From NCBI GenBank assembly GCA_951812955.1, contig OX638340.1:2688001-2752000 (forward strand): a stretch of 64,000 nt of DNA. The letters are read 5' to 3'. Every line of letters starts with the position of its first letter. Position 1 is the first letter of the stretch. The translations under genes were made by a program, and so were the position numbers. This stretch comes from an uncultured Gemmatimonadota bacterium. GTDB taxonomy: Bacteria > JAAXHH01. Positions 4,434 to 49,189 of the stretch are shown piece after piece. The notes below the pieces were generated by a model, which was not told the origin of the DNA, ran no database searches, and saw only the letters and a list, made by a program, of their open reading frames with translations.

Positions 4434-5076
4434 ACCTACCCTAGGCGGCGGGATTCCCACTCCTGTTCGACGGTACTTCTGCTATTATGTGATTTCGATC
4501 TGCGCGGCCCTGCTGCTCATTCCAGGATGCCGCACCGAATCCCCTCCTCCGTCCCAGATCGACGTCCCCGCACTCCTGGACTACGGCGAACGCTTCGGCG
4601 GCGATTTCACGCTGACCGACCAGGACGAAGCGCTATTCAACCTTTCTGAATACCGCGGCGACGCCTTCCTGATCTTCTTCGGCTACACCTTTTGCCCCGA
4701 TGCCTGCCCGCTCATGCTCTCCAAGCTGGCGGCCGTCTACGACGTGCTCGATCTCGAACCAGGCCAGCACGTACGCACGGTATACATCACCGTCGATCCA
4801 TCGCGCGACACGCCCGAGCAACTCAGAGAGTACCTGGCCTACTTCTCCACGGTGGACGTCCGCGGCCTGACGGGATCGCGGGAGGAGATCGACGAGGTCG
4901 CCGAACGGTACGGCGTGCTGTACAAACTGCAGGAGCCGAACGAGGCGGGGCACTACCTGGTGGCCCACACCACCACCCTGTTCCTGGTGGATACGGAGGG
5001 CCGCCTGCGTTTCCGGTTCCATCCAAGCGACACCCCGGAATACATCGCGGCGGGCGTGAAACTGCTCTTCGAATAG
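4420..5076 (+). CDS. SCO1/SenC copper chaperone (thioredoxin fold, CxxxC)
   Basis: FGYTFCPDACP motif and conserved C-terminal H. Lipoprotein-like signal (LLLIPGC). The exact start is uncertain: 4420 is GTG and overlaps the islet end, and alternative GTG starts lie downstream. Confidence 0.8.
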   Translation: MPIVEPTLGGGIPTPVRRYFCYYVISICAALLLIPGCRTESPPPSQIDVPALLDYGERFGGDFTLTDQDEALFNLSEYRGDAFLIFFGYTFCPDACPLMLSKLAAVYDVLDLEPGQHVRTVYITVDPSRDTPEQLREYLAYFSTVDVRGLTGSREEIDEVAERYGVLYKLQEPNEAGHYLVAHTTTLFLVDTEGRLRFRFHPSDTPEYIAAGVKLLFE

Positions 5077-8891: not shown

Positions 8892-10883
8892 TCAGACCCG
8901 TTTGATCCCCTCGCACAGATCGATCATGGCGGAGAGGATGGATTCCGCCAGGCAGTCGATGGCTTCCCGTGTTCCCGCGATGTCTACCGAGGCCGCCGAA
9001 ACGTAGCACTTGACCGTGGGTTCGGTGCCCGACGGTCGCACGATGACCCGCGTATGTCCGGACTCAGAAAAGGTGAAGACCAGGATATCCGCGCGATCGC
9101 CGTCAACGGGCGTAGTCGTTCCCGTTCGCAGATCCTGCGCCTGGCCGCTCTGCCGGTCGATCACGCGGCAAACGGCGCGTCCGCCTATCCGCTCGGGAGG
9201 CGCTTCACGCAGCGCGGCCATCATGCCTTCGATCCTCCGTGTGCCCTCCGCGCCGGGCAGCGCGACCGACCGCTGGACTTCCCTGAAATATCCGTACGTT
9301 CGGTAGATATCGTCCAGTTCATCGCGCAGGGTGCGGTTGTCCTTCTTCGCCAGGGCGGCGAACTCGGCGAGCAGGATGCCGGTGGCAGCCTCCTTGTCCC
9401 GTATCCGGGCGTCGGCCAGATAGCCGTGGCTTTCCTCGGTACCGAACACGAAGGACATATCCGGCGGCAAGCCTTCGATCGCCGCGCCAACGTGTTTGAA
9501 ACCGATGGGCAGGTCGTCGATGACCTCCAGTCTGAAGGACCGGGCGATGATCGAGGCAAGGTCCGAGGTGACCAGCGTCTTGCAGAACAGACCCCTAGGG
9601 GGCAGCGTACCCGCCGCTTGCTTCCGGCTGAGTATGTAGTGGCAGAGGAGGACGCCGATCTGGTGACCGTTTAAACTCAGTTCTTCCGGCGGAGCTTCCC
9701 ATCCCCTGTCCGGCAGCGGCAGCGCGCACCCGATCCGGTCGGCGTCGGGGTCGCTCGCGAGCACGAGGTCCGCGCCGACTTCCGCGGCTTTTCTGAAGCC
9801 CAATTGAAAGGCCGCCGGTTTTTCGGGGTTTGCGATCCCATGGTCCAGCGTGGAGAACGCACCGTCCGGGACGACCTGCTCATCCACGTAGTGCACGTCC
9901 TCATAACCCAGCTTATCCAGTGCCGCGGCCACCGAGGTCATGCCCACGCCGTGCAGTGGGGTATACACCACACGCACGTCTCGGCCATCGGCCAGCGACA
10001 GGTCCGACAGGACGCCGATATACCCCTCGTCCAGGTCCCTGCCGATGATCCGGATCAGGCCGTTTCGGAGGCCTTCTTCGTAGTCGATCCGCCTGATCTC
10101 ACCGGCCTGCCTCATCTCTCTCGTGATGTCCCCGTCCCGGGGCGCCACCACCTGCCCCCCGTCGGGTCCGTAAACCTTGAATCCGTTGTCTTCGGGTGGA
10201 TTGTGGCTCGCGCTGATCATCACACCGGCCGCCGCCCGGAGTTCGCGGACGGCGAAGGAAAGCGCGGGGGTGGAGCGAAAACCGTCGAAGATCAGGACGT
10301 CTATGCCGTTGGCGGCCAGCACGCCGGCCGTCTCTTTCGCAAACAACTCCGAATTGCGCCGGGTGTCCCATGCCACGACGACGCCGCGCGCCCCAGCGGG
10401 ACCGCGGTGATTTTCACTAACTTGCCCATCACCGCCTTGCCCATCGCCCTCGAGCCCTGCACCGACACGTTCCCCGTCGCCATCGTCGCCCTGCCCATCG
10501 CCGCCTCGCCCATCACCTTCGCGCTCTGCACCGACGCGATCCCTGTCGCGCTCTGCACCCTCGCGATCCCCATCGCCTCTCCCCATCATCCCGGTGACAT
10601 ACCTGGCCAGTCCCTGTGCCGCCAGGCCCACGGTGTGGGTGTTGAGCCGGTTCGGCCCCGGTCCCATCCGACCTCGGATGCCGCCCGTTCCAAAGGAGAG
10701 GACCGAACCGAATGCGTCCTCCAGTTCGTCGGTGCCGCCGGCATCGATGAGGGCATGGATCTCATCCCGGTACGCCGCGAGGCCGGGCTCCGTAGACCAT
10801 AGTACCAGGGCATCCGAGGCCGCACGGGACAGGATGCCGTTTTCGGTCCAGGCGTTGATCCTGCTGACGCGTTGTTGATTCAT
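8892..10883 (-). CDS. Phosphoglucomutase/phosphomannomutase-family alpha-D-phosphohexomutase, with a low-complexity insertion
   Basis: N-terminus ...AFGSVLSFGTGGIRG and the active-site ISASHNPPEDNGFKVY are as expected. ATG at 10883, so the track ORF's 105-aa N-extension is rejected. A Gly/Asp/Arg-rich insertion of about 65 aa is present. Confidence 0.8.
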   Translation of the reverse strand: MNQQRVSRINAWTENGILSRAASDALVLWSTEPGLAAYRDEIHALIDAGGTDELEDAFGSVLSFGTGGIRGRMGPGPNRLNTHTVGLAAQGLARYVTGMMGRGDGDREGAERDRDRVGAEREGDGRGGDGQGDDGDGERVGAGLEGDGQGGDGQVSENHRGPAGARGVVVAWDTRRNSELFAKETAGVLAANGIDVLIFDGFRSTPALSFAVRELRAAAGVMISASHNPPEDNGFKVYGPDGGQVVAPRDGDITREMRQAGEIRRIDYEEGLRNGLIRIIGRDLDEGYIGVLSDLSLADGRDVRVVYTPLHGVGMTSVAAALDKLGYEDVHYVDEQVVPDGAFSTLDHGIANPEKPAAFQLGFRKAAEVGADLVLASDPDADRIGCALPLPDRGWEAPPEELSLNGHQIGVLLCHYILSRKQAAGTLPPRGLFCKTLVTSDLASIIARSFRLEVIDDLPIGFKHVGAAIEGLPPDMSFVFGTEESHGYLADARIRDKEAATGILLAEFAALAKKDNRTLRDELDDIYRTYGYFREVQRSVALPGAEGTRRIEGMMAALREAPPERIGGRAVCRVIDRQSGQAQDLRTGTTTPVDGDRADILVFTFSESGHTRVIVRPSGTEPTVKCYVSAASVDIAGTREAIDCLAESILSAMIDLCEGIKRV
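10400..10605. repeat. Degenerate tandem repeat (about 63-bp period) encoding a [GDRE]-rich insertion inside the phosphohexomutase gene
   Basis: Repeated gccctgcaccgacacgttccccgtcgcc-like units. The encoded protein segment is GRGDGDREGAERDRDRVGAEREGDGRGGDGQGDDGDGERVGAGLEGDGQGGDGQ. Confidence 0.7.
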
Positions 10884-21309: not shown

Positions 21310-21396
21310 GCCGGGGTGGTGGAATTGGTAGACACAGGAGACTTAAAATCTCCCGGACCTCAATAGTCCGTGCCGGTTCGAGTCCGGCCCTCGGCA
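21310..21396 (+). tRNA. tRNA-Leu (anticodon UAA), type II with a long variable arm
   Basis: The cloverleaf was read manually. It has a GCCGGGG acceptor, an anticodon loop cuUAAaa, a long variable stem-loop and a GTTCGAGTC T-loop. Confidence 0.85.
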
Positions 21397-21435: not shown

Positions 21436-21509
21436 GGGCGCTTAGCTCAGATGGTTAGAGTGCCACGTTGACATCGTGGAGGTCAGTGGTTCGATCCCAC
21501 TAGCGCCCA
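21436..21509 (+). tRNA. tRNA-Val (anticodon GAC)
   Basis: Acceptor GGGCGCT/AGCGCCC, anticodon stem CCACG/CGTGG with loop TTGACAT, and T-loop GTTCGATCC. Confidence 0.8.
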
Positions 21510-33361: not shown

Positions 33362-33450
33362 TGAAACGGCCGGCCACCAGTGCCGCGTATTGAGAAGCGA
33401 CCCGGCTGAAACGGCCGGCCACCAGCGCCGCGGATCACGAAGCGGCCCCT
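33362..33450. repeat. Imperfect tandem duplication with a 44-bp period (tgaaacggccggccaccagYgccgcg...) upstream of the AmgK-like gene
   Basis: Direct reading of the sequence. Confidence 0.6.
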
Positions 33451-34970
33451 TTGACGGAACGCCGGATCGTACCCGGCCGGGACAGGCGACCATGATTCCA
33501 GATGCCCGGGACAGGCTGGCACGACTCTTCCGAAACACATTCGGCCATGCACCGGCGCACATCGCCACCCTGGGCGCGGACGGATCGATACGGCGGTACT
33601 TCCGGCTGCAGGGCGAAGATCAAACCGTCATCGGCGCAGCCAACAACGACCGGCGCGAGAACACCGCCTTCCTTTTCCTGTCCCGCCACTTCCGTCGCCA
33701 CGGACTGCCGGTACCCGAGATATACGCCCAGGATCTGGACCAGGGCGTCTACCTGCAGCAGGACCTGGGCGACGAGACGCTGTTCAGCCGGTTGGCCGCC
33801 GCCCGCGCGGAGGAGGGGACGTTTCCGGAACGGTTGGCCGCCGCCCGCGCGGAGGAGGGGACGTTTCCGGAACGGTTGGCGGCGATATACCGGCGGGTTC
33901 TCGACGACCTGCCCCGTTTCCAGGTCACCGCGGCGGAGAATCTGGACTTCTCGGTCTGCTACCCAAGGAGCCGTTTTGACGGGCAATCCATCCAGTGGGA
34001 CCTGAACTACTTCAAGTACCACTTCCTGAAGCTCGTGCCTGTCGACTTTGACGAGCAGGCCCTTGAAAACGATTTCGAACGATTCACGGCGTACCTCTTG
34101 GAAGCCGATACCCGATACTTCCTGTACCGGGATTTCCAGTCCCGGAATATCATGCTGCACGATGGCCGGCCGCATTACATAGACTACCAGGGCGGGCGGC
34201 AGGGCGCCCTTCAGTACGACATCGCGTCGCTCCTTCAGGACGGCAGGGCCGACATCCCGTGGGCAACGCGGGACGAACTCCTGGATTATTATGTCGAGAA
34301 AATCGGAGCGTACGCGGCTGTTTCAAGAGCATCGTTTCTGTCCCACTACTACGGCTACGCCCTGGTCCGTCTCATGCAGGCGCTGGGCGCCTACGGGTAC
34401 CGCGGGCTGTACGAAGGCAAGTCCCACTTCCTGACCAGTATCTCCCATGGCGTTCGTAACCTCGAGGGTCTGTTGGTGCGGGCCGCCCTGCCGGACGACC
34501 TGCCTGAACTGACCCGGGCCTGGTCGCGGATCGTCGACGATCCTGCGCTTCGGCGAATGGGAGCGGTTTCCGGAGAAGGGCTGACCGTCCACCTCTGGAG
34601 TTTTTCCTATCACCTCGGCCTGCCCCGGGACCCGAGCGGAAACGGCGGGGGTTTCATCTTCGACTGCCGGATCGTGAAGAACCCCGGGCGTATTCCCGAA
34701 TACGCGGCCCTGACGGGGAAGGACGCACCGGTGGCCGTATTCCTGGACAAAAATGAGGATGCGCGGACCTTCCTGGGGGATGCGAAGACCATGGTCGACC
34801 GGGCGGTAGAACACCACCTGCGGCGCGGGTTCACCGACCTGACCGTCGCCTTCGGTTGTACCGGCGGCCAGCACCGTTCGGTATACTTCGCAGAGCGCCT
34901 GGCGGCGCACCTGTCGGAGCGTCCGGGCCTGACGGTCCGGCTGAGGCACCGGGAGCAGGAGGATTCGTGA
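33390..34970 (+). CDS. Fusion protein. N-terminal AmgK-like MurNAc/GlcNAc anomeric kinase (APH fold), C-terminal RapZ (YhbJ) C-terminal domain.
   Basis: The N-terminal half has the GADGSIRRYFRL and YRDFQSRNIML motifs of the AmgK/APH family. The C-terminal 110 aa align with the RapZ C-domain motif by motif (FIFDCRIVKNPGR..., VAVFLD, DLTVAFGCTGGQHRSVYFAERLAAHL). The likely start is ATG at 33492. Confidence 0.65.
   Translation: MRSDPAETAGHQRRGSRSGPFDGTPDRTRPGQATMIPDARDRLARLFRNTFGHAPAHIATLGADGSIRRYFRLQGEDQTVIGAANNDRRENTAFLFLSRHFRRHGLPVPEIYAQDLDQGVYLQQDLGDETLFSRLAAARAEEGTFPERLAAARAEEGTFPERLAAIYRRVLDDLPRFQVTAAENLDFSVCYPRSRFDGQSIQWDLNYFKYHFLKLVPVDFDEQALENDFERFTAYLLEADTRYFLYRDFQSRNIMLHDGRPHYIDYQGGRQGALQYDIASLLQDGRADIPWATRDELLDYYVEKIGAYAAVSRASFLSHYYGYALVRLMQALGAYGYRGLYEGKSHFLTSISHGVRNLEGLLVRAALPDDLPELTRAWSRIVDDPALRRMGAVSGEGLTVHLWSFSYHLGLPRDPSGNGGGFIFDCRIVKNPGRIPEYAALTGKDAPVAVFLDKNEDARTFLGDAKTMVDRAVEHHLRRGFTDLTVAFGCTGGQHRSVYFAERLAAHLSERPGLTVRLRHREQEDS
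33791..33874. repeat. Perfect 42-bp in-frame tandem duplication inside the AmgK-like gene (encodes LAAARAEEGTFPER x2)
   Basis: Identical 42-mers at 33791-33832 and 33833-33874. Confidence 0.85.
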
Positions 34971-34975
34971 AGGCC

Positions 34976-35728
34976 ATGATCCTCGCCGCGGGACTGGGTA
35001 CCCGGTTGCGGCCCCTCACTGACACCCGGCCTAAAGCCCTCGTGCCGGTGGCCGGCAGACCCATGATTCACTGGGTGATCGCGCGACTCGCCAGTCACGG
35101 CTTCACGGACATCATCATCAATGCCCATCATTTCGCGGCGCAGATCGAGACCTTCGCGGCCGCGTACAAAGGTCCGGGCTCCCCACTGACTGTTTCCGTA
35201 GAGGAGGAGATCCTGGACACGGGCGGCGGGGTGCGGAAGGCCGCGTGGTTCTTCGACCGCGAGGAGCCGTTCCTGGTGCACAACGTGGACGTGCTGACCG
35301 ACCTGGATCTATCCGGCCTGATGAACGCTCACCTGGCTTCGGATGCCCATTCGGCCTATGGGGCCCTGGTCACCTTGGCCGTGAAGAGTAGAAAAAGTTC
35401 GCGTCACCTCCTGTTCGATGAGGCGGGACGGCTGGGCGGCTGGCGTTCGGACGTTACGGGAGAGACGCGCACGGTCCGGCCGATAGCGGGTCCCGTCACC
35501 CCCGTGCCCTTCATGGGCGTCTACGTCATGTCCCCTGCCGTGTTGAGAAAGATGGCCGATCCCGGTCCCTTTTCGATCATCGACTTCTTCCTGGACCAGG
35601 CAGGTGGCGGCGCGCCGATTCGGGCCTATCGGGCTGATGATGCCAGGTGGGCGGATCTCGGAAGCGAGGACCGCATCGCGGCGGCCGAGCGGCTCTTCGG
35701 TACGGACTGGTTCGCGGAGATCGGTTAA
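34976..35728 (+). CDS. murU: MurU-like sugar-1-phosphate nucleotidyltransferase (N-acetylmuramate alpha-1-phosphate uridylyltransferase family)
   Basis: MILAAGLGTRLRPLT...KALVPV nucleotidyltransferase N-terminus. Sits immediately downstream of the AmgK-like gene, which is the canonical AmgK-MurU pair. Confidence 0.65.
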   Translation: MILAAGLGTRLRPLTDTRPKALVPVAGRPMIHWVIARLASHGFTDIIINAHHFAAQIETFAAAYKGPGSPLTVSVEEEILDTGGGVRKAAWFFDREEPFLVHNVDVLTDLDLSGLMNAHLASDAHSAYGALVTLAVKSRKSSRHLLFDEAGRLGGWRSDVTGETRTVRPIAGPVTPVPFMGVYVMSPAVLRKMADPGPFSIIDFFLDQAGGGAPIRAYRADDARWADLGSEDRIAAAERLFGTDWFAEIG

Positions 35729-36330
35729 TCCGTTCTCCAGACGAACACATACACGCAAAGGCCAGGCTTACCCGCCATCGGTCGAAATGACTTGAAGCGC
35801 AGCGCGCCAACGGTTATCTTGGTACCGTATCGATCTTCCTATAAACACGCCCTCACCCGAAGGAGGTTTGAATTGGCTGACGCATCGTCCTCCCGCGGCG
35901 CGAGGCAGTGTCTGCGTAGTCTGCTCTATCGCGGTTGTTGCCCCCGCCGAAGTTTTACTCCTACATAACCGGCGACAGCGGGCAAATACGCGGTGAAGAC
36001 GTTTCCTTCAGGATTCGCGCTCGTTGAGCGTCTCCGGTAATCCTCGCGGAACGGTTTCTCCTCCATTATGGCCCGGACGGTCATCTTGTTCGTACCGCCC
36101 GGGGCGATGGCAACTCGTGGATATACGGAATTCCCTGCCCGAAGCCAGGCGGGAATCCTGTCCTGTAGCAGCCTTTCTCCTGCCCCGCGCGGATCGTGCA
36201 TCTATTGATCCGAGCCACGACCCGTCGCTACACGATAGCGAGTCGAGCTGCGAGAAGCGTGCAGAGCGTGTTCAATTTTCAGTGCGCAGGATATCCGCGC
36301 CGGCTCTCCGAAATCAGTAAGGTAGGTACT

Positions 36331-37722
36331 ATGTCCGGCAGAATGAATGGAAGCCCCCCCAAATTCCAGATTTACGATCTCAGGAACTACAGAAAAATAC
36401 CCCAGATTGAGCATCTCCGGGACGAGCTGAAATTCGAAATGGAAGTCGTCGCGCAGGTTCTACCGTTCCGGACCAATTCCCACGTGGTGGAGAACCTGAT
36501 CCAATGGGAGAACATCCCCGACGACCCCATGTTCCAGCTCACTTTTCCGCAGCGGGAGATGCTGTCGCCGGACCACTTCGACGCGGTGGCTGCATTGGTG
36601 AAAAAGCAGGCGGGCAAAGCGGAAATGGCGCGCACGGTGAACCGGATCCGATGGGATCTGAATCCACAGCCCGCGGGCCAACTCGAGCACAATGTCCCCA
36701 GGGAGGACAACGAGAGACTGGATGGCATGCAGCACAAGTACCGGGAGACGGTACTGTTCTTTCCATCCCAGGGACAGACCTGCCACGCATACTGCACCTT
36801 CTGCTTCCGCTGGCCCCAGTTCGTGGGGATCGATGAGCTGAAGTTCGCCAGCCGCGAGGTCGAAAGTCTCATCAGATATCTTGAGGAAAATCCCCAGGTC
36901 ACCGACGTACTTTTCACGGGCGGCGATCCCATGGTCATGCGAGCAAAGAACCTTAGCGTGTATGTCGATGCGTTGCTGAAGGCGGACCTCCCCAATCTGC
37001 ACACGATCCGAATCGGGACGAAATCGCTGGCGTACTGGCCCTACAAGTACCTTACTGACCCGGACGCGGACGACGTGCTGGCGCTCTTCGAACGGGTAAT
37101 TCGCGCCGGTAAGCACCTGGCCATCATGGCCCATTGCAGCCATCCCGCCGAACTGCAACCCGACGCGGTGGCAAAAGCGGTCGGCCGGATCCGTGGTACG
37201 GGGGCAAGAGTTTACACGCAGTCTCCCATTCTGAGGCATATCAACGACGATCCGAACACCTGGGCCGCCATGTGGCGCAAGCAGGTGGACCTGGGGATGG
37301 TTCCCTATTACATGTTCGTGGTGCGAGACACCGGCGTGCAGCGCTTCTTCGCCGTGCCGCTGGTTCGCGCGTGGGAGATCTTCCAGAACGCCTATCAGCA
37401 GGTAAGTGGGATATGCCGGACCGTGCGCGGCCCCAGCATGTCGGCCCATCCCGGGAAGATCCATGTCCTGGGCGTCAGCGAGGTCCGCGGAGAGAAGATC
37501 ATCGCCCTGCAATTCCTGCAGGGACGCAATCCCGACTGGGTCCTGCGGCCGTTCTTCGCCCGGTACGACGAAAGAGCCATCTGGCTGGACGACCTCGAGC
37601 CGGCCTTTGGCGAGGAGTCGTTTTTCTTCGAAGAAGAGTTGGCGCAGTTGTGCGCTGAGGACCTGCCCTCCGGCCAGTGGGACGTGATGGAGTCCCTGGT
37701 GCTGGAAGGCGTGGAGTTTTAG
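36331..37722 (+). CDS. KamA-family radical SAM aminomutase (lysine 2,3-aminomutase-like)
   Basis: CHAYCTFCFRW (CxxxCxxC), LFTGGDP and IRIGTK blocks, and the long KamA-type C-terminus. ATG at 36331. Confidence 0.8.
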   Translation: MSGRMNGSPPKFQIYDLRNYRKIPQIEHLRDELKFEMEVVAQVLPFRTNSHVVENLIQWENIPDDPMFQLTFPQREMLSPDHFDAVAALVKKQAGKAEMARTVNRIRWDLNPQPAGQLEHNVPREDNERLDGMQHKYRETVLFFPSQGQTCHAYCTFCFRWPQFVGIDELKFASREVESLIRYLEENPQVTDVLFTGGDPMVMRAKNLSVYVDALLKADLPNLHTIRIGTKSLAYWPYKYLTDPDADDVLALFERVIRAGKHLAIMAHCSHPAELQPDAVAKAVGRIRGTGARVYTQSPILRHINDDPNTWAAMWRKQVDLGMVPYYMFVVRDTGVQRFFAVPLVRAWEIFQNAYQQVSGICRTVRGPSMSAHPGKIHVLGVSEVRGEKIIALQFLQGRNPDWVLRPFFARYDERAIWLDDLEPAFGEESFFFEEELAQLCAEDLPSGQWDVMESLVLEGVEF

Positions 37723-37875
37723 TGAACGGGGCAGGGGTCAGGGTACGGTACTTGATGACCTCCCTGGGATCAGCGTTTTTCGGCCACAGCCTCAGCCAGC
37801 TGTTCTTTAGCCCACTGATTAACACTCACGCCGCCCACCTCGGCCGCCTCGGCTACCGCTGCGTGGGTTTCCGGA

Positions 37876-39336
37876 TCAATCCCCCAGCCCCGCATACCGG
37901 CAGACAATCTCCACGGCCTTGACCAGGGTCTTCGCGCCGAGTACGGCGTATTCCTCGATCAGGTTGCCTTCCTGGTCGAGCGTACCCAGGCCGGGACCGA
38001 GGAACATCTTCCCGCTGTAAATCGTGGCCGGTTCGACGCCCATGTGCTCCTGGGCGAGGACGATGGGATTGGTGTTGGCCCACAGGTCTTCCAGGTTGAA
38101 GATCGGGATGCCGAAGGCGCCGTCTTTCCACGTGCGTTCGTAGTTGAGCTCGGTGCCGCCGAGCTGGTAGGTTTTCGTGAAGATCAGGTCGTCGCGGAAT
38201 CGGGAGGGTTCCATCCGGGCGAATTCCTCTACGATGATTTCGTGGAACCGGTCCACGGGATCGGTGACCAGGCGGGGACGGTCGCGGAGGACCTTCAGGT
38301 AAGCGGTCAGACCGACCAGGGTGTCCCGGCCGGGATCACTGAAGGTATAGACCGCCTTGCCGTGGGAGGACAGCTCGCCGTACCGCTGGCCGCCCAGGCC
38401 CATGCCCTTGCGGATCGGGTTTATGACCTCTTCGCGGCCAATCAGCAACCCCGACGCAGGCGCACGGCCCGGCTTGTCCATGCTGTAGGTGATGATGTCG
38501 CAGCCGATGTCCCGGGGATCCATGCCGACGATGGGAATCGATCCTCCCGTGTCCACGATGTAGGGCACGTCGTAGTCCCGGGCCACGTCGGCGAGTTTCT
38601 TCAGGAGGATCGGCGCGCCGTTCTCGTCCTGTTCGCCGAGTCCGTAGCTGGGTGTGTCGTATCCCACCGTGGCGATGCCCGTGAGCAGGGAAGCGTTCCG
38701 TTCGGCGGCCTTCTTCACGTTTCCGATGGTGCCGTCCACGTCCACCCCGGTGAGCAACGAGGTGGGATTATACCGGATGCCGTGCGGATCGTATTTCGCG
38801 CCGGCCATGGGTACGTAGAGCGTCTCGAGGTTCGCCAGGCTCTTGTTCTCGATGCCCAGTTCGCCGCCGGCGATAGTCCGGTCCACGAGAAGGTTCTTGT
38901 ACCGCGGCGGGAAGGCCCGGCCGTAGCCGCCGATCCATTCGTAGTCCTCGCCGTAAGGCATGAGCAGGCGGCCGCGGTAGATGTCGCCGTGGCGCATGGA
39001 GGGCGGAGCGCAAAGCGTCTCCAGGGTCAGGCGCAGCAGCGATTCGCAGGTGTTGGCGGCCACCGCGTCGAACTCATCGCCGTAGACGTCCTTGACGACT
39101 TCCCGCAGTTCGTCTTCGACCACCCGCACCGGGTAGGTCTTGCCGCCCCGGTTGGCTTCCACAATCGCGTCGAGAACGTAATCGGGGAGGTTGCCTGGTC
39201 TCGCCGAACTGCCGGCGTACAGGCCGATGTCCTGCCGTAGCTTCAGCGTGCCGATCTCTTCGCCGTATATCCGGGCCTCTTCGGCGATTTTACCCAAATT
39301 GTCGTAGATTGACTGGTACCACTGGAACTTGTACAT
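37876..39336 (-). CDS. SelA-like (seryl-tRNA(Sec) selenium transferase fold) PLP-dependent enzyme of unknown specificity
   Basis: DIITYSMDKPGRAPASGLLIG resembles the SelA PLP-lysine block (VTFSGDKLLGGPQAG). ATG at 39336. The N-extension in the track is not used. Confidence 0.5.
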   Translation of the reverse strand: MYKFQWYQSIYDNLGKIAEEARIYGEEIGTLKLRQDIGLYAGSSARPGNLPDYVLDAIVEANRGGKTYPVRVVEDELREVVKDVYGDEFDAVAANTCESLLRLTLETLCAPPSMRHGDIYRGRLLMPYGEDYEWIGGYGRAFPPRYKNLLVDRTIAGGELGIENKSLANLETLYVPMAGAKYDPHGIRYNPTSLLTGVDVDGTIGNVKKAAERNASLLTGIATVGYDTPSYGLGEQDENGAPILLKKLADVARDYDVPYIVDTGGSIPIVGMDPRDIGCDIITYSMDKPGRAPASGLLIGREEVINPIRKGMGLGGQRYGELSSHGKAVYTFSDPGRDTLVGLTAYLKVLRDRPRLVTDPVDRFHEIIVEEFARMEPSRFRDDLIFTKTYQLGGTELNYERTWKDGAFGIPIFNLEDLWANTNPIVLAQEHMGVEPATIYSGKMFLGPGLGTLDQEGNLIEEYAVLGAKTLVKAVEIVCRYAGLGD

Positions 39337-39420
39337 GGCTGTTCTTTCTCGGATCCGCACTGCGTTGGACGAGACGGGAAGATCGTCTACGGGCGGTTTC
39401 ACGCCGGACCGTCGTGGGGA

Positions 39421-40575
39421 TCAGGGTATGCTGGAAATCACTTCGAGGGCCCGTTCCACGTCGGACACCCGGTTGTACAAGTGGGGCGAGAATCGGATCA
39501 CGTCGCCGCGCAACGCGACCATGACGCCGGACTGCTTCAGATGCTTCGCCACGCTGGAGATGTCGTGGCCGGGAAAACGGGCGGTAACAATGGCCGAGCG
39601 TTCGGCGGCGTTCCGGGGGGAAGTGACCTCGGCGCCGATATCCGCCAGGCCGCTGATGAGGTGGTCGGCGAGGACCTGGTTATGGGCGAAGATCTCGTCG
39701 ATACCCGTGTCCACGAGGAATCCGATCGACTTCGCGAACCCGCCGGCCAACCCATAGGCCATGGTGCTGAACTCGAACCGGGACGCGTCCTCCGGGTAAT
39801 CCGGCGGATCGGTGCTGATGTCCCAGATGTCGACCTGGCTCCGAAAGCCCACCAGGCCGGGTTCGAGGCTCGTGGCGAGATGCGGAGCGAGGTACATGAC
39901 GGCGATACCGAAAGGACCGCACAGCCACTTGTATGCTCCGGCGGCAACGGCGTCGATGCCCATGCCGGGTGCGTCGATGGGGACGGCGCCCGCGGACTGC
40001 GTGGCGTCCACGACGAGCAGGGCTCCGTGCCGGTGCGCGATCTCGGCAAAAGCGGCGAGGTCCCAGCGCTGGCCGCTGCGGAATTCGACGTGGGACAGGG
40101 CCACTACGGCCGTGTTGTCGTCAATGAGGTCCCGGACGCGGCCGGGATCGACAGTACCTCCCCCCCGCGCGTGCGCCAGCCGGATCTCACAGCCCGTGTG
40201 GTTGGCGACCCGTCTCCAGGGGTAGACCGAAGCGGGGAAGGATACGTCCGTGCTGACGACGTTGGTTTCCGGTCCGGGCATGACCGCCCAGGCGAGGGAA
40301 CTCAGGAGCTCGGTGGTGCTGGACCCGGCGGCGATGTCGGTCGGCGACGCGTTGAAGAGCCGGGCGGCCTGCCGGTGCAACTCATCGAATACCGTGGCTT
40401 CGGCTTCTTCGTCGAAGTGGTTGCTGCCGTTCTCGGCGACGTCCCGGTACCATTCGGTGATCGCGGACGCGGCCGGACGGTACATGGGCGTTACGTTCGC
40501 CGCGTTGATGTAGGTGCAGGTCTGTGCTACGGGAAACTCATCGACCGGAACCAGCGGATCGAGGGACTGTGGCAT
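39421..40575 (-). CDS. Class V aminotransferase / cysteine-desulfurase-fold PLP enzyme
   Basis: AYKWLCGPFG block and the fold-type I class V layout. Confidence 0.75.
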   Translation of the reverse strand: MPQSLDPLVPVDEFPVAQTCTYINAANVTPMYRPAASAITEWYRDVAENGSNHFDEEAEATVFDELHRQAARLFNASPTDIAAGSSTTELLSSLAWAVMPGPETNVVSTDVSFPASVYPWRRVANHTGCEIRLAHARGGGTVDPGRVRDLIDDNTAVVALSHVEFRSGQRWDLAAFAEIAHRHGALLVVDATQSAGAVPIDAPGMGIDAVAAGAYKWLCGPFGIAVMYLAPHLATSLEPGLVGFRSQVDIWDISTDPPDYPEDASRFEFSTMAYGLAGGFAKSIGFLVDTGIDEIFAHNQVLADHLISGLADIGAEVTSPRNAAERSAIVTARFPGHDISSVAKHLKQSGVMVALRGDVIRFSPHLYNRVSDVERALEVISSIP

Positions 40576-40593
40576 GGTAAGGCCTCCCGGCGA

Positions 40594-41772
40594 TCAACCG
40601 GCGGCCGCGTCGCGCTCGTTCACTGTTCCCGCGTCCTCTTCCTCGGCGACCTGGCGGAGCAGGCTGGCAATCCGGCGCAGTCCCTCGTTCAGGTAGTCGG
40701 ACGGCAGGCCGTAGCTGATGCGGAGATGGTTAGGTATGCCGAAGTAGTCCCCTGGACCGATGAGCACCGACTTCTCCTGGATCAGTCGATTCGCCAGTGT
40801 CGCGGAATCGGCCTTCAGGTTGTACCGGACGAAGGAAACGGCCGTTGCCTGGGGCGGAACGAGACTCAGGATGTCCGAGTTGTCGCTGATCCAGCCGTGG
40901 TAGTTCTCCCATCCCCGCCGGATATAGCCCCGCGTCCTTTCGAAGATGGCCTGCCGCACGTCCGGGCGCAGCGCCAGCGGCGCGAGGAAATGGTTGGACA
41001 ACTTGGCGGTGCTCAAAGTCAGGTACTCGTGGCGCTTCCAAAGCTCCCTGAGCAGGTCTTCAGGACCCACGAGCCAGCCGATCCGCAGGCCGGGCATGCC
41101 GAAGGACTTGGACATGCTGCCCGCCGCGATGACCCGGTCGTACCGACCGTAGAAGGTGGGCGAAACCTCCTCCCGCTCCCGCTCGGACCCGGCGTAGATC
41201 TCGTCGGCGAGCAGGTAGGCGCCGCTGCGTTCGGCCGCGCGGACGACGGCGTCCATTTCGGATTCCGTCAGGATCTGCCCCGTCGGGTTGTTTGGGTTGC
41301 AGATGGAGATCAGTTTCGTTTCGTCAGATACGGCGGACTCCAGGCTGTCGGTATCGAGCGCCCATCCCCGGTCGGGATCGAGGGTGAACGTCCGGCGGAT
41401 GGCGCCCATGTTGTGCGCGAGCCCCCAACTCTGGAGGTAGCATGGCACCTGGACCGCCACCTCGCCCCCGCCTTCCAGCAGCGTCTGGAACGTGATGTAA
41501 TTGGCCTCGATGCATCCGATGGTCACCAGTACGTTATCGGCCGTGGCGCCGGGGTAGTACTGGGCAATGGCCTCCCGCAGTTCAGGCGAACCGTTGGCGT
41601 ATCCGTAGCCCAGTTCGGTATCCAGCATGCGGTCCAGGATATCGGGATCGTGGGCGATCAGTTCCCTGACCTTGACCGGGTGCGCGCCGCTCTCGGACAG
41701 GTTGTATTCCACGACCTGTTCCCAGTCCGACATGATGCGTTCCAGGTCAAAAGTCTGGAAGGTCGATGCCAT
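40594..41772 (-). CDS. Class I/II aminotransferase (aspartate/aromatic family)
   Basis: NPNNPTG and SMSKSFGMPGLRIGW (SxSK PLP-lysine) motifs. Confidence 0.8.
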   Translation of the reverse strand: MASTFQTFDLERIMSDWEQVVEYNLSESGAHPVKVRELIAHDPDILDRMLDTELGYGYANGSPELREAIAQYYPGATADNVLVTIGCIEANYITFQTLLEGGGEVAVQVPCYLQSWGLAHNMGAIRRTFTLDPDRGWALDTDSLESAVSDETKLISICNPNNPTGQILTESEMDAVVRAAERSGAYLLADEIYAGSEREREEVSPTFYGRYDRVIAAGSMSKSFGMPGLRIGWLVGPEDLLRELWKRHEYLTLSTAKLSNHFLAPLALRPDVRQAIFERTRGYIRRGWENYHGWISDNSDILSLVPPQATAVSFVRYNLKADSATLANRLIQEKSVLIGPGDYFGIPNHLRISYGLPSDYLNEGLRRIASLLRQVAEEEDAGTVNERDAAAG

Positions 41773-41927
41773 GTGCTTGCTCCTTGGTTTGATGGGCCGT
41801 CAGTGTTCGGTGCGCCGGCCATGTCGGCCTGCTAATCCGGTCAGCCTGGTCAGTGTGGCCGGCCAAGTCAGCCTGGCCGGCCGTGTCAGCCCGCCAGTCC
41901 GGCCGCTCGGTCATTCCGTCCGTCTGT

Positions 41928-42875
41928 CTACTTTACGGCGTGGTATACGGCCTTGGATATCTGGATATCCTGTACGGCGACGCCCGTCGAATCGGCGATC
42001 GTGATCTGGTCGTCGGAAGTGCGGCCGAGGGAAGGATTCTGAATCACGTTCCCGAGCTCGACCACCTTGTCCTCGGTTATGGCGCCCGCCATCATCGCCT
42101 GGGCGATCTCGCCCCGCAACCTGCACTGGGGGATGCTGTCCGCCACGACCACGTCGGCCTTTACGAGCACGCCTGGATCCAACTCGATCTTGTCCGGCGT
42201 ATCCGATCCCATGGCGGTGATGTGGGTCCCGGGCCGGACCTGCTCGGCGGTCAGCAGCGGCGACAGGGACGGGGTGGACATGATGATGAGATTGCTTGTC
42301 GCCGCCACCGCGCCGGCGTCATCCGTTGTCTCGACGGAGTATCCCTGGGCTTCCATGTCACGCATGTAGGACGCCTTGCTCTCGTCGGAACGTCCCCACG
42401 CGATCACGTCCGTGCAGTCGACGACACCCTTCAGGTACTCAACCTGCATGCGTGCCTGCAGGCCCGTACCGAAAACGCCGATGCGGCTGACGTTCTTCGG
42501 CGCGAGGACCTTGGCCACGACTGGCCCCATGGCGGCCGTACGTACGTTGGTGAGGTAGCCCTGGTCGAGCAGGAACGCCACCGGCTGGCCCGTTCTCTGA
42601 TTGAAGACCAGCATCATGCCCTGGACGCGGGGGAGGCCCACGTTCGGATTATCGCTGAAACCGGAGGCCAGCTTGATAACGTAATAGTCATCGTTGTTGA
42701 TCGCGCCGTACTTGATATGCACGTTCCCTGGAGGATCCTCGAAGTGCATCTCGCCGACGGGCGGCACCTGCACATTTCCCTGCGAATATGCGACGAAACC
42801 GTCCTCTATATCCTGAATGACGTCAATGCCCTCTACGGCTTCCTTGATTCGGTCCAGTTCGACGATGAGCGGCAT
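41928..42875 (-). CDS. Ornithine cyclodeaminase / mu-crystallin family protein
   Basis: Rossmann GVFGTGLQA motif and an OCD-family layout. Confidence 0.8.
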   Translation of the reverse strand: MPLIVELDRIKEAVEGIDVIQDIEDGFVAYSQGNVQVPPVGEMHFEDPPGNVHIKYGAINNDDYYVIKLASGFSDNPNVGLPRVQGMMLVFNQRTGQPVAFLLDQGYLTNVRTAAMGPVVAKVLAPKNVSRIGVFGTGLQARMQVEYLKGVVDCTDVIAWGRSDESKASYMRDMEAQGYSVETTDDAGAVAATSNLIIMSTPSLSPLLTAEQVRPGTHITAMGSDTPDKIELDPGVLVKADVVVADSIPQCRLRGEIAQAMMAGAITEDKVVELGNVIQNPSLGRTSDDQITIADSTGVAVQDIQISKAVYHAVK

Positions 42876-43157
42876 GGTTGAACTCCTCCTGGCAATCTGG
42901 TAAACCTGAGTATTTGCCCGGTGCGAAAGGCAATCCGGATTATTTATAAAAATGAGCAGACAAGTTAACGGATGCGCGGGCCGAAGTCAACCAAAACCGC
43001 GCGGATATCGCGCCCGGAACGACCTGCTCGGGCACGCCTGGACGCTCTCCGCAGTTCACCGGCAGGGCGGGGGATATTGTATTGACAAAAACGGCTTCAT
43101 GTCTCACAATACGGGAGTCTTCCCTACATGCCGGCAGGTCCCAGGAGGAGTACTTAC

Positions 43158-44258
<1,101 letters not shown>

Positions 44259-46564: not shown

Positions 46565-47656
46565 TCAATCTTCCCAGGCCGTCCGGGGACCGTCCACGTA
46601 ATCCAGGTACCGGTCCGCGACGGCCGCCTCGTGCGAATCGCCGGTGTGAATGACGACGCGCCATCGGAAGGTGGTTTCTGAATCCGCCGCGCAGTGGTGG
46701 TCGTCCCAGACCATCCAGCAATTCGCGGCGAACAGTCCATACCCTCTCACGTGCCAGGCTGTGGGGTACCGGAGGTTGTCCGAGTGGTCGAAGACGGCGA
46801 AGCCCGCGGTCTCGTCTCCCACCGGGCCGCAGTAGTCCATCCAGTGCGCCCGCCGGGACCAGCAACCGGTCTCGTCGTCCGCGCCGTAGACGTTGCGCAT
46901 CCGGCCGTCGCCCGAGGCGTTCATGGAGGGGTTGACGCGGATGCTCAGGAACCCGCCCTCTTTCGTGGAACCGATGGTGACGGGACCCCGATCGGCGAGG
47001 AGGGTGAAGAGGACGTCCAGTACCACGGCGTCGCGCCCGGTGTCGAAGAGGCGGTACCACCTGCGGTCGGACATCAGCGGCCGTTCTCCCTCGTACCAGG
47101 TGTTGCCCGTGGCGATGGTAAGCGACAGGGGGCCCTGATGGATCGACATTTCGTCCTGTACGGTCCGTCCGAACCCTGGCCGGTCGAACTCTCCCCAGCA
47201 ATCCACCCCGTTGATGGCGCCCTGCATCAGGGTGAGACCCCGCTGCCAGGGATGCTCCCCCTCGCTGTAAGCCGGCAGGGGTTCCCTCAGCATGTTGACG
47301 CCCCCCGGCGTAAGAATGGGATTGATGAAGGGCTTGGGATATCCGGCGCCGTGGTGAAAGGTCATGAACGGCGATTCGCCCAGAGACACTTCCACCCGGT
47401 CCTCACGGCAAACATGTTCAATGCCGCAGCGGGGCGCCGTGTTCTTGGCGGCTGCCGCGACCCAGGTTGAGACCTCGCCCACTTCCATCGATGGCAGGAT
47501 GGCGTGATATATGGCGGACAGGGGATCCCGTTCGGCGAAAAGGGTGGAACCGCCGCTTCCGGTAAGCCGAAGCACCGGCGCGTTACAACCATCGGGCGCC
47601 GGTATGGCAGCCAGTTGTTCTCTTCTGGATCGCGGCGAAGTCAGGGTCAGTTTCAT
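46565..47656 (-). CDS. Hypothetical protein, possibly PmoA-like/DUF6807 family
   Basis: Long ORF of varied composition. ATG at 47656. The family assignment is tentative and rests on overall resemblance only. Confidence 0.4.
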   Translation of the reverse strand: MKLTLTSPRSRREQLAAIPAPDGCNAPVLRLTGSGGSTLFAERDPLSAIYHAILPSMEVGEVSTWVAAAAKNTAPRCGIEHVCREDRVEVSLGESPFMTFHHGAGYPKPFINPILTPGGVNMLREPLPAYSEGEHPWQRGLTLMQGAINGVDCWGEFDRPGFGRTVQDEMSIHQGPLSLTIATGNTWYEGERPLMSDRRWYRLFDTGRDAVVLDVLFTLLADRGPVTIGSTKEGGFLSIRVNPSMNASGDGRMRNVYGADDETGCWSRRAHWMDYCGPVGDETAGFAVFDHSDNLRYPTAWHVRGYGLFAANCWMVWDDHHCAADSETTFRWRVVIHTGDSHEAAVADRYLDYVDGPRTAWED

Positions 47657-47812
47657 GAAACGTATCGCTCCCTTGTTTAAACGTGTCGTTTCCTTGTATG
47701 GTTTATCGTATTTGCCCGGTTCCGTGGCGCGGACACGTACTCGTAAAAACATCGCATTCCGGAAATCTGCACGGCCCGGCGTCCTGGCAGTAAGGGAAAA
47801 GCCCGGTATCCC

Positions 47813-49189
47813 TTACTTCAATGTGGCGATCATGCGCTCCCGTACCAGGGACCGTATCACGTCGTCGAAAGCGTCGAGGGTCAACGCGATGTCCTCGTCG
47901 GTATGGGCGGAGGAGGTGACGCCGCCCGTGTAGGAGACCAGGTCGATGCCTCGGGCGAGCAGCATCTTCTGGAAGGCGGCGACCACGGGAGCCGGGATCC
48001 CTTTAAGGACGTTCACGTCGCGGGTGACCAGCCGTTCCCGGCCAGAAGCGCCGCTTCCCGGGAAGGCCTCCAGGTAGACGTGGAAGATGGACACGTCCCC
48101 GTAAACGTAACCGGCGACGCCTTCCTCGCGGAGGATGTCGTCCATGCCCTGCCGGAGCCGTTCGGCCAGCCGGTTCGCCCGTTCGTGCGGCAGACCGGTG
48201 GCCACGCGTTTCAGGGTGGCGATGCCGGCGGCCGTGGATACCGGGTTGGCGTTGAAGGTTCCCAGGTGATGGACCCGTTCGTACCGGTCCCGGTGTGCGT
48301 CACCTGTGTAGTCGAACACTTCCATGATGTCGGCACGGCCGGCGACCACGCCGCCCGGCATGCCGCCGGCCACGATCTTGCCGTGAAAACTCATGTCCGG
48401 CGTGATCCCCGAGTATTCCTGGTAGCCTCCAGGCGCGTAACGGAACCCCGTAATGACCTCGTCGTAGATCAGGAGCACGCCGGCCGCACGGGTCAGATCG
48501 CGGAGTTTCTCATTGAACTCCACGGACAGGGGTCCGGTACCCCAGGAGGCACCTGACGGCTCCAGCATGACGGCGGCGATATCCCGGTCCTTCTCCAGTA
48601 CTTCGGCCACGCGGTCGAGTTCCGCCGGGATAACCTCGATCGTATCGAGCACGGCCGGAGGGATGCCCGCCGAGACTGGCTGGTCGAAGGGGATCATGGC
48701 CCCCTTGCCCACCCCGTCGTGCCATCCGCTGAAATGTCCCTCGAAGCGCAGCACCCTGGTCTTTCCTGTGTAGGCCCGGGCAACGCGGAGCGCGAGCATG
48801 CTTCCCTCGGACCCCGAGTTCACGAAACGCACGCGTTCGGCGCAGGGGACCAGCTTCCGGATCAGTTCGGCCCACTCCAGTTGCATCGGGTGGTCGTTCC
48901 CGAAATGAAAGCCGAGTTCGAGGGCGTCGCCCATGGCCCGGCACACATCCGGCGGAGCGTGACCCAGCAGCAGCGCGGCGTTCCCCATGCCGTAGTCGAT
49001 GTATTCACGGCCGTCCTCGTCCCACTTGCGTGAGCGTGCCGCATGGGACATGTACAATGGCAGGGGATGGCCTCTGCGCAGGTCGTGACCCACACCGCCG
49101 GCCAGCGATTCCATCGCACGCGAATACAGTTCCACGGACCGCGGCCGGGTCTTCCGAAGCGCTTCGATTTTTGCGTCACCCATGTGCAA
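47813..49189 (-). CDS. Class III aminotransferase (glutamate-1-semialdehyde aminomutase-like)
   Basis: The LIYDEVITGFR block and the class III PLP fold. Confidence 0.8.
   Translation of the reverse strand: MHMGDAKIEALRKTRPRSVELYSRAMESLAGGVGHDLRRGHPLPLYMSHAARSRKWDEDGREYIDYGMGNAALLLGHAPPDVCRAMGDALELGFHFGNDHPMQLEWAELIRKLVPCAERVRFVNSGSEGSMLALRVARAYTGKTRVLRFEGHFSGWHDGVGKGAMIPFDQPVSAGIPPAVLDTIEVIPAELDRVAEVLEKDRDIAAVMLEPSGASWGTGPLSVEFNEKLRDLTRAAGVLLIYDEVITGFRYAPGGYQEYSGITPDMSFHGKIVAGGMPGGVVAGRADIMEVFDYTGDAHRDRYERVHHLGTFNANPVSTAAGIATLKRVATGLPHERANRLAERLRQGMDDILREEGVAGYVYGDVSIFHVYLEAFPGSGASGRERLVTRDVNVLKGIPAPVVAAFQKMLLARGIDLVSYTGGVTSSAHTDEDIALTLDAFDDVIRSLVRERMIATLK

Follow-up and report, generated by a model that had tools for sequence, protein, structure and literature searches.

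In a 64,000-nucleotide (nt) stretch of contig OX638340.1 from an uncultured Gemmatimonadota bacterium (assembly GCA_951812955.1), hereafter called the window, a plus-strand gene for a KamA-like radical S-adenosylmethionine (radical-SAM) protein converges on a minus-strand run of four genes. In the order of transcription these encode a protein of the ornithine cyclodeaminase (OCD)/mu-crystallin family, a class I/II pyridoxal phosphate (PLP) enzyme, a class V PLP enzyme and an orphan PLP enzyme (Table 1). The KamA-like gene and the four-gene module are, in the explanation that we favour and consider probable, two functionally independent units which have become neighbours only in a narrow lineage, and their adjacency is a case of lineage-specific synteny. 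The KamA-like gene belongs to a widespread family that in other organisms is integrated into the control of osmotic stress, and the module has as its core the orphan PLP enzyme together with the OCD-family enzyme.

Conservation of the neighbourhood was followed from both sides. On the KamA side the sample comprised 82 loci, 80 of them from species-representative genomes and two found by exact protein look-up, with flanks of up to 10 kb; on the other side it comprised 83 loci encoding the orphan PLP enzyme. When the flanks were searched by tBLASTn with the window proteins, all four operon genes were detected near the KamA-like gene in just one of the 82 loci (L003), whose KamA-like protein is 89% identical to that of the window and whose entire neighbourhood is syntenic, and the KamA-like gene was found in none of the 83 loci carrying the orphan PLP enzyme. 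In L166 and L167, whose KamA-like proteins are 92% identical, the two units are separated by genes for HicB, a hypothetical protein and a PIN toxin, and the orphan PLP gene is broken into two open reading frames (ORFs), probably as a pseudogene. The toxin-antitoxin insert occupies positions 9440-13211 in L166 and 9440-13209 in L167. No trace of the operon was found within 8 kb of the KamA-like gene in L002, a Gemmatimonadota metagenome-assembled genome (MAG) with a KamA-like protein 73% identical to that of the window. Three loci with orphan PLP enzymes 87% identical (L086, L087 and L091) had kept the whole four-gene module, along with a divergent gene for an ATP-binding cassette (ABC) ATPase, without the KamA-like gene.

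The initial annotation of this DNA had combined the aminomutase, the transaminases and the presumed cyclodeaminase in a single pathway, in which a beta-amino acid made by the 2,3-aminomutase would be transaminated and then cyclised or deaminated by the operon products, and had suggested a comparison of gene neighbourhoods in relatives. That comparison, run from both sides, showed that the five genes are not co-conserved, and as co-conservation was absent in either direction the joint pathway is left unsupported. It can draw on the physical adjoining of the genes in the window and in L003, on the fact that amino acids are substrates of all five products and on the pairing of the KamA family with a class I aminotransferase elsewhere, but is contradicted by the module that persists without the KamA-like gene, by the toxin-antitoxin insertion beside a split orphan gene, and by the orientation of the genes, since two convergent units whose stop codons lie 153 nt apart cannot share a transcript. 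The class I enzyme of the window was also considered as the partner aminotransferase of the KamA-like protein and rejected, as it shares 25% identity with the true partners, whose mutual identity is 51% or more. A single pathway of five genes is thus hardly credible.

When compared with the models of the defined KamA families, the KamA-like protein stayed below every cut-off. It scored 118.2 bits against TIGR00238 (cut-off 199.2), which makes it an outlying branch of the superfamily, 96 bits against the lysine 2,3-aminomutase AblA (TIGR03820; 525.4), 97.2 against EpmB (TIGR03821; 369.3), 84 against arginine aminomutase (600) and 71 against the glutamate 2,3-aminomutase Eam (TIGR04368; 650). 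Pfam detected the Radical_SAM domain alone, and the best 150 matches in the search of representative sequences were all of this superfamily type, with no labelled Eam, AblA or EpmB among them. Homologues are publicly named 'lysine 2,3-aminomutase' or 'KamA family protein', and the former name is not supported by the cut-off of any model and is probably a misnomer. By these comparisons the predicted protein is a member of the KamA superfamily and of none of its defined families. In agreement with the initial annotation, the layout corresponds to neither the kam/kdd/kce nor the ablAB arrangement, on which model scores and neighbourhoods concur, and the protein is not EpmB: it shares the KamA-family fold with EpmB (YjeK), but differs in its score, in a lysine site that has not been kept and in its surroundings, epmA and efp being absent from the most frequent neighbour families.

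Among solved structures the one relative is the lysine 2,3-aminomutase (LAM) KamA of Clostridium subterminale (PDB 2A5H, E=4.7e-19), with which the protein shares ∼23% identity over an aligned core of ∼270 residues. Only residues 98-369 of the window protein align; both of its termini look different, and no C-terminal Cys-rich zinc motif was seen in it. The residues of the catalytic machinery are present throughout the family: C151, C155 and C158, which form the CxxxCxxC motif, align with LAM C125, C129 and C132, R160 corresponds to the alpha-carboxylate arginine R134 and K376 to the PLP lysine K337, all in 83 of 83 family sequences. For these assignments the LAM sequence past residue 324 was checked against the numbering in the literature and a printed alignment. 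The lysine-specific site, by contrast with this machinery, has been lost. LAM Asp293, the ligand of the epsilon-ammonium group of lysine, is replaced by an arginine (R332) in 83 of 83 sequences, in agreement between HMMER and two MAFFT alignments, and Asp330 is probably replaced by a serine (S369 in 82 of 83 sequences in one alignment, the equivalence being ambiguous in another). The predicted enzyme therefore keeps the radical-SAM, PLP-dependent 2,3-aminomutase machinery without the lysine-specific site. R332 argues against lysine as the substrate, but cannot by itself name another, such as an acidic amino acid, because it is retained in sister clades including a fusion with an N-monooxygenase. 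In the latter protein (P0342; 882 amino acids, aa) an L-lysine 6-/L-ornithine 5-monooxygenase domain (PF13434, 336 bits) is fused to a KamA-like domain that shares 47% identity with the window protein and in which R332 and D333 are retained and position 369 is a valine. The fusion suggests that this sister clade may work in N-hydroxy-diamino-acid or siderophore-type chemistry.

A true lysine 2,3-aminomutase producing beta-lysine, be it for the osmolyte N-acetyl-beta-lysine or for modification of elongation factor P, would agree with the name in the public records, with the conserved radical-SAM and PLP core and with an osmotic-regulon context, which beta-lysine would suit as well. We nevertheless consider this very unlikely, given that the scores are three- to fivefold under every lysine-aminomutase and EpmB cut-off, that Asp293 is an arginine without exception, and that no ablB-type acetyltransferase, epmA or efp occurred among the 25 most frequent Pfam families of the 130 near neighbours inspected in about 50 bacterial loci. 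Of the product class put forward in the initial annotation, a beta-amino acid remains plausible for an enzyme of this type, whereas beta-lysine is unlikely with the lysine site lost.

More than 8000 homologues of the KamA-like protein were scored. Those 56-70% identical to the window protein came from Gemmatimonadota, Chloroflexota, Bacteroidota, Balneolales, Betaproteobacteria, Ignavibacteria, KSB1 and the archaeal Nitrosopumilales, and a single Nitrosopumilus cluster at 90% identity comprised 2385 member sequences. The bacterial genes are mostly solitary. Their sole recurrent partner is a class I aminotransferase of ∼431 aa, which adjoins the KamA-like gene in 13 loci of Saprospiraceae, Chitinophagales, Betaproteobacteria and Ignavibacteria and resembles transaminases of the aspartate/glutamate type; a search for other conserved partners of the KamA-like gene yielded none. 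In the Nitrosopumilales a gene for an MscS-type channel is located divergently ∼130-340 nt upstream of the KamA-like gene in 21 of 23 loci, and in the two remaining loci it stands behind an intervening aminotransferase gene or downstream, respectively. A glutamine synthetase gene follows the KamA-like gene in 10 loci, nine of which belong to the Nitrosopumilales. Outside the archaea, MscS domains were encoded by two bacterial neighbours and, at a distance of 2.7 kb, in Sulfuricella.

The KamA-like gene is preceded by 400 nt or more of gene-free DNA in about 20 of 59 bacterial loci, and these long gaps led us to scan the loci with Rfam. In five of seven Chloroflexota loci (L007, L009, L012, L049 and L054) a cyclic di-AMP (c-di-AMP) riboswitch (RF00379) was detected on the same strand, ∼140-250 nt ahead of the KamA-like coding match, with scores of 75-97 bits (gathering score 38). 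The interval from riboswitch to KamA-like gene, checked in L012 alone, contains no ORF longer than ∼100 aa. L049 carries two such riboswitches back to back, at 4465-4599 (minus strand) and 4719-4859 (plus strand), one directed towards the KamA-like gene and the other towards a divergent gene. No riboswitch was detected by Rfam in 15 further long-gap loci from other phyla.

The window gene likewise stands behind a long non-coding stretch. The initial annotation had noted an untranslated leader of some 600 nt, and the gap is indeed there and non-coding by its substitution pattern. When positions 35790-36130 were compared with the relatives L003 and L166, the substitutions at the three codon positions numbered 12/16/16 and 12/21/19, with no 3-base periodicity, as against 108/23/26 and 105/19/18 (about 5:1:1) for the KamA-like coding sequence in the same comparison. 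This block is nonetheless 77-91% identical to L003 per 100 nt, which is near the level of the coding regions; of the spacers used for comparison, those between the OCD-family gene and the class I and ABC ATPase genes were unalignable to L003 or ∼70-77% identical. A stretch of 68 nt (35884-35951) showed no change relative to L003 and one relative to L166. Part of the long gap is thus, as judged from these alignments, under constraint. Small ORFs in the leader were considered, namely a 31-codon ORF behind GGAGG, a 91-aa ORF on the minus strand and a 98-aa ORF on the plus strand, and were rejected because the substitutions are not 3-periodic and indels occur in the relatives. The 31-codon ORF (window 35864-35959, plus strand) has a TTG start, keeps its length and stop in L003 and L166, and has the 68-nt block as its core; a leader peptide translated from it would be possible but is unsupported.

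Since the Chloroflexota riboswitches fill the equivalent space, it is reasonable to regard the 602-nt region as a putative transcribed regulatory leader, which would then be the lineage's own regulatory region. As in the osmolyte genes governed by c-di-AMP (ydaO) riboswitches, to which the five Chloroflexota orthologues can be added as standing directly behind one, the window gene is preceded by a long non-coding stretch; it differs from them in that its leader matches no Rfam family. Several results weigh against a structured leader of this kind: Rfam over window positions 35500-36500 returned nothing but noise at E<=5, without RF00379, and the predicted fold energy was no better than that of shuffled sequences (z of +0.70 for the plus strand and -0.82 for the minus strand). 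RNAalifold on three sequences gave one compensatory pair among 91 predicted pairs, with too little variation to judge, as three to five near-identical relatives offer too little covariation for a leader structure. A scan for promoters and terminators in the leader found no sigma-70-like promoter and terminator-like sites at chance level. The block is single copy and was found elsewhere only in L003 and L166-168. Gaps of 565-730 nt precede the KamA-like gene in L003, L166, L002, L169, L170 and L004 as well; in the relatives at 73-74% protein identity the gap is equally long (∼700 nt), its sequence cannot be aligned to that of the window, and the L002 leader gave no Rfam hit at E<=1. In the distal leader, extra tandem copies of a ∼20-nt unit (GGGTCCGAGCCGCCCTCTAT-like) are present in L003 (∼9800-9900) and L166 (∼7730-7880) and absent from the window.

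There is consequently a substantial chance, only somewhat short of even, that the 602-nt region does not form a regulatory RNA leader but is no more than a spacer or promoter stretch, in which relics of inserted repeats may persist. The missing Rfam match, the unremarkable fold energy, the loss of alignability at 73% protein identity and the extra repeat copies would all agree with this, as would the gap being a divergent intergenic region in L002 and L004. A mere spacer does not readily account for conservation close to that of the coding sequence in the lack of any coding signal, least of all for the invariant 68-nt block, nor for the recurrence of long gaps in about one-third of the bacterial loci of the family or for the proven riboswitch class that the equivalent space carries in Chloroflexota.

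In Nitrosopumilus maritimus no identified metabolite is more abundant than beta-glutamic acid, which reaches 730 mM and for which no gene was named (Heal et al., PMC8269262); the compound is more abundant at depth in the ocean (PMC8269262). In the body of literature that we searched for the gene behind thaumarchaeal beta-glutamate, none was linked to the compound in these archaea. A gene named 'lysine-2,3-aminomutase' is found behind tandem Na+ and c-di-AMP riboswitches in a published case, and ablA and eam are listed as osmoprotectant genes under Na+ riboswitches (PMC9337991). The most economical hypothesis, which we put forward tentatively, is that the KamA-like family makes beta-glutamate as a compatible solute, because the aminomutase machinery is kept while the lysine site is lost, because the family is abundant in the Nitrosopumilales, and because of the MscS neighbour, the Chloroflexota riboswitch and the Asp/Glu-type partner. 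The enzyme would convert glutamate to the osmolyte beta-glutamate, and the dedicated class I aminotransferase, where one is adjacent, would supply or drain the substrate of the aminomutase.

Two glutamate 2,3-aminomutases have reportedly been characterised: Eam of Clostridioides difficile, which Ruzicka and Frey are said to have described in 2007, and a second one from methanogens, attributed to Tunckanat and colleagues in 2022. Both enzymes belong to the same superfamily as the window protein. At the positions of LAM Asp293 and Asp330, Eam is said to have Lys and Asn, and the window protein has Arg and probably Ser, the Arg being kept in sister clades of other contexts too. Beta-glutamate is an archaeal osmolyte, and eam is among the riboswitch-controlled osmoprotectant genes. 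The window protein differs from Eam by its 71 bits against a cut-off of 650.

Against a glutamate substrate it must be held that the methanogen enzyme is reportedly a different, longer protein with an N-terminal extension of ∼160 aa which is absent here, that the equivalence of S369 to Asp330 is ambiguous, and that R332 is conserved in most clades of the wider superfamily (330 representatives, E<=1e-30). An osmolyte function in general is weakened by the occurrence of the family in freshwater and soil taxa, by the confinement of the MscS and glnA linkage to a single order with conserved synteny, and by the regulatory context, the c-di-AMP riboswitch class governing cell-envelope genes as well as those of osmotic homeostasis; in three of the riboswitch loci (L009, L012 and L049) an M23/LysM peptidase gene follows downstream of the KamA-like gene. 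Such points would be explained if the enzyme were osmotic- or envelope-related, with a substrate other than glutamate or a chemistry other than the 2,3-amino shift, and if the link to beta-glutamate were coincidental. R332 is, after all, common to sister clades in very different contexts, the N-monooxygenase fusion included, c-di-AMP riboswitches also govern cell-wall hydrolases, and members of the family are present in Nitrosotalea, Sulfuricella, Chitinophagales and other non-saline taxa. We nevertheless regard this alternative as unlikely. The 730 mM pool of N. maritimus needs an aminomutase, and a gene of this KamA type is universal and abundant in the order; the adjacency to MscS suits an osmolyte too, and the partner aminotransferase is of the Asp/Glu type.

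The second unit of the window has as its least familiar member the orphan PLP enzyme, for which Pfam gave no match. Its 597 homologues, which are 486-490 aa long and 45-94% identical throughout, are distributed over Chloroflexota, Latescibacteria, Aminicenantes, Bathyarchaeia and Asgard archaea, and every named one is labelled 'hypothetical'. The archaeal entries (L161/L162, P0241, P0276, P0281, P0285, P0289, P0300 and P0304), from Bathyarchaeia and from MAGs of Thor-, Heimdall-, Hod- and Odinarchaeota, are 45-58% identical to the bacterial proteins. Sequence similarity to known PLP enzymes does not extend beyond a segment of ∼60 residues that holds the PLP-binding Asp and Lys (VD...SMDK). An AlphaFold model built from 12 sequences was poor, with a predicted local distance difference test score (pLDDT) of 54.6, and a model from 52 sequences (pLDDT 89.6) was therefore the one used. 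Foldseek aligned it with SufS, SelA, Cap15 and SepCysS at template modelling (TM) scores of ∼0.5 and 12-15% identity. The label 'SelA-like' given in the initial annotation thus proved too specific, as the scores reached no SelA or DgaE cut-off, no specific structural match was obtained and several families were matched alike. The enzyme shares the predicted fold and the Asp...Lys(PLP) segment with the SelA/DgaE/SepCysS/SufS group and, going by this model, represents a new family of predicted fold-type-I PLP enzymes.

Neighbours of the orphan PLP gene were counted in the 58 loci with enough flank. An OCD-family gene was present within 6 kb in 21 of them, in six loci on the same strand with a gap of at most 40 nt, and these OCD genes come from different subfamilies with identities of 26-79%. 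The class V enzyme was encoded nearby in 13 of the 58 loci and the class I enzyme in nine; 12 other loci had class V homologues, 48-70% identical, close to the orphan PLP gene. Transport functions were represented by an APC amino-acid permease (13/58) and by components of polar-amino-acid ABC transporters (7/58), and genes of the Asp/Glu/hydantoin racemase type and the S-Me-THD type occurred in five to six loci. In L085 a gene of the Ldh_2 family, which includes the other known type of imino-acid reductase, occupies the place equivalent to that of the OCD gene. The four minus-strand genes accordingly stand up as a recurrent amino-acid module, whose core is formed by the orphan PLP enzyme paired with the OCD-family enzyme. 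Tight co-transcription of all four genes is not required, because in L086 (7637-8917, minus strand) and L091 (7475-8659, minus strand) a DNA-methyltransferase-like gene of opposite orientation, assigned by eye from its translation, separates the class I gene from the class V gene.

The OCD protein is placed in its family by 208.6 bits against PF02423 (gathering score 24) and by the Rossmann motif GVFGTGLQA. It scored 406 bits against PRK06823 (cut-off 438) and 126.5 against the ornithine cyclodeaminase model PRK07589 (cut-off 350). Its PDB matches were led by the alanine dehydrogenase of A. fulgidus (169 bits), iminosuccinate reductase (116) and pyrroline-2-carboxylate (Pyr2C) reductase (103), those to ornithine and lysine cyclodeaminases reaching 76-79 bits, and CmnK was matched as well. 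On these scores the protein is nearest to the alanine-dehydrogenase/imine-reductase branch and apparently not one of the proven cyclodeaminases, so that of the earlier designation the OCD/mu-crystallin family membership holds and the identity as a cyclodeaminase probably does not. The class V enzyme combines its PF00266 domain (Table 1) with a kynureninase-type C-terminal domain (KYNU_C, 34 bits) and remained under the cut-offs of both sufS (121 against 475) and kynureninase (63 against 246). Its C-terminal part reads RGDVIRFSPHLYN, in which RFSPHLYN, without a cysteine, stands at what we take to be the place of the catalytic Cys motif GHHC of SufS. Its lysine motif AYKWLCGPFG presumably resembles the kynureninase type. 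It thus looks like an enzyme of the SufS/kynureninase-like type that lacks the active-site Cys motif of cysteine desulfurases. The class I/II enzyme came nearest to PRK07324 (273.7/476), GntC (254.5/415) and VioD (223.1/390.9), under the cut-off in each case, and its PDB matches were 3OP7 and 8FFT.

Since an OCD-family gene recurs by the orphan PLP gene, imino-acid or imine chemistry, which had been suggested for all five genes, is plausible for the module alone. An imported amino acid would be converted by the PLP enzyme, through elimination or transamination, to an imine or keto intermediate, which the NAD(P)H-dependent OCD-family enzyme would then reduce, unless the reaction runs in reverse; the class V and class I PLP enzymes may contribute accessory steps. 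Pairs of a PLP enzyme with an OCD-family enzyme are known from the beta-hydroxyaspartate cycle (bhcABCD), from SbnA/SbnB and CmnB/CmnK and from the plant proteins ALD1/SARD4. In each, the OCD-family enzyme reduces or oxidises an imine derived from its PLP partner, and the module is formally like BhcB/BhcD. It also resembles bhcABCD in clustering several PLP enzymes with an OCD-family gene, and iminosuccinate reductase was the second-best distinct solved match. It is not that cycle, however, since the class V enzyme scored 38.3 against a BhcA cut-off of 650 and the OCD protein 156.7 against a BhcD cut-off of 500, and it differs from all these pairs in that its core PLP partner is of a new fold-type-I family and not of fold type II or the alanine-racemase type. 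Two points weigh on the other side, namely that we infer the chemistry of the module from family membership as its one ground, and that many loci carry the orphan PLP gene without any partner gene.

Alternatively, the module could be a classical cyclodeaminase route, in which the OCD enzyme converts ornithine or lysine to proline or pipecolate in a direct reaction, to which the adjacent PLP enzymes are unrelated. The Pfam membership in the OCD/mu-crystallin family and the weak matches to ornithine and lysine cyclodeaminases would fit, but the latter (76-79 bits) are outscored by alanine dehydrogenase and the imine reductases (103-169 bits), the score against PRK07589 is 126 with a cut-off of 350, and the repeated occurrence of the OCD-family gene in a tight operonic pair with the orphan PLP gene speaks for a coupled reaction. 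A cyclodeaminase route is therefore distinctly improbable.

Taken as one comprehensive proposal, the KamA subfamily would be a third, hitherto unrecognised type of glutamate 2,3-aminomutase and the source both of the 730 mM pool in marine ammonia-oxidising archaea and of beta-glutamate in many bacteria, the 600-nt region would be a lineage-specific osmoregulatory leader that replaces the Chloroflexota riboswitch, and the orphan PLP and OCD enzymes would perform a new two-enzyme amino-acid conversion. That all of these parts hold jointly is possible but doubtful.

The order and orientation of the five genes given in the initial annotation were borne out by the ORF listing, Pfam and NCBIfam; their coordinates are collected in Table 1. 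The window has ∼61% G+C. The four minus-strand genes are separated by spacers of 155, 18 and 84 nt. The start of the KamA-like gene was placed at ATG 36331, which is preceded by AAGGTAGG, and the resulting N-terminus MSGRMNGSPPKFQIYDLRNY aligns with the N-termini of homologues; a longer ORF from GTG 36196 was considered and not supported. The start of the orphan PLP gene is most likely Met23 of a 508-aa ORF, because homologues are 486-490 aa long.

Table 1. Positions and strands of the features described, numbered from the first letter of the window.
Feature	Position	Strand	Remarks
NTP-transferase gene	ends 35728	+	upstream neighbour of the KamA-like gene
Non-coding region	35729-36330 (602 nt)	+	between the NTP-transferase and KamA-like genes; candidate regulatory 5' leader
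Conserved non-coding block	35790-36130	+	inside the 602-nt region; contains the 68-nt stretch 35884-35951
KamA-family radical-SAM/PLP enzyme gene	36331-37722	+	463 aa
Orphan fold-type-I PLP enzyme gene (fourth PLP gene)	37876-39336	-	486 aa; probable PLP lysine K288 in SMDK
Class V PLP enzyme gene	39421-40575	-	384 aa; PF00266 162 bits
Class I/II PLP enzyme gene	40594-41772	-	392 aa; PF00155 160 bits
OCD/mu-crystallin-family NAD(P) enzyme gene	41928-42875	-	315 aa; PF02423 209 bits

Upstream of the non-coding region, window positions 33390-35728 (plus strand) encode an APH-type kinase that carries a fused RapZ C-terminal domain (PF22740, 114 bits), followed by the NTP-transferase gene, and together these look like a sugar-recycling pair of the AmgK/MurU kind that is unusual in its fusion. 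On the other side, a stand-alone gene for a MalK-type ABC ATPase with OB/TOBE domains (43128-44258, plus strand) is divergent from the OCD-family gene and keeps this position in L003, L086, L087, L091 and L166. It has no adjacent gene for a permease or binding protein, and MoxR and DUF58 genes come next. A few kb past the four-gene module are a class III aminotransferase gene (47813-49189, minus strand) and a DUF6807 gene (46565-47752, minus strand). Two tRNA genes at 21310-21396 and 21436-21509 (plus strand) were the sole matches at Rfam gathering scores in the whole window.

At this locus adjacency gave no pathway signal, and the two units are of interest each for itself. Enzyme discovery has a clean target in the orphan PLP family, whose roughly 600 sequences range from Asgard archaea to Gemmatimonadota-like bacteria. 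The riboswitch link extends the known osmotic regulon of Chloroflexota. If the KamA-like family does make beta-glutamate, many automatic annotations as 'lysine 2,3-aminomutase' would be corrected, an aminomutase working in aerobes would be added, and a gene marker would become available for a major marine pool of nitrogen and carbon.

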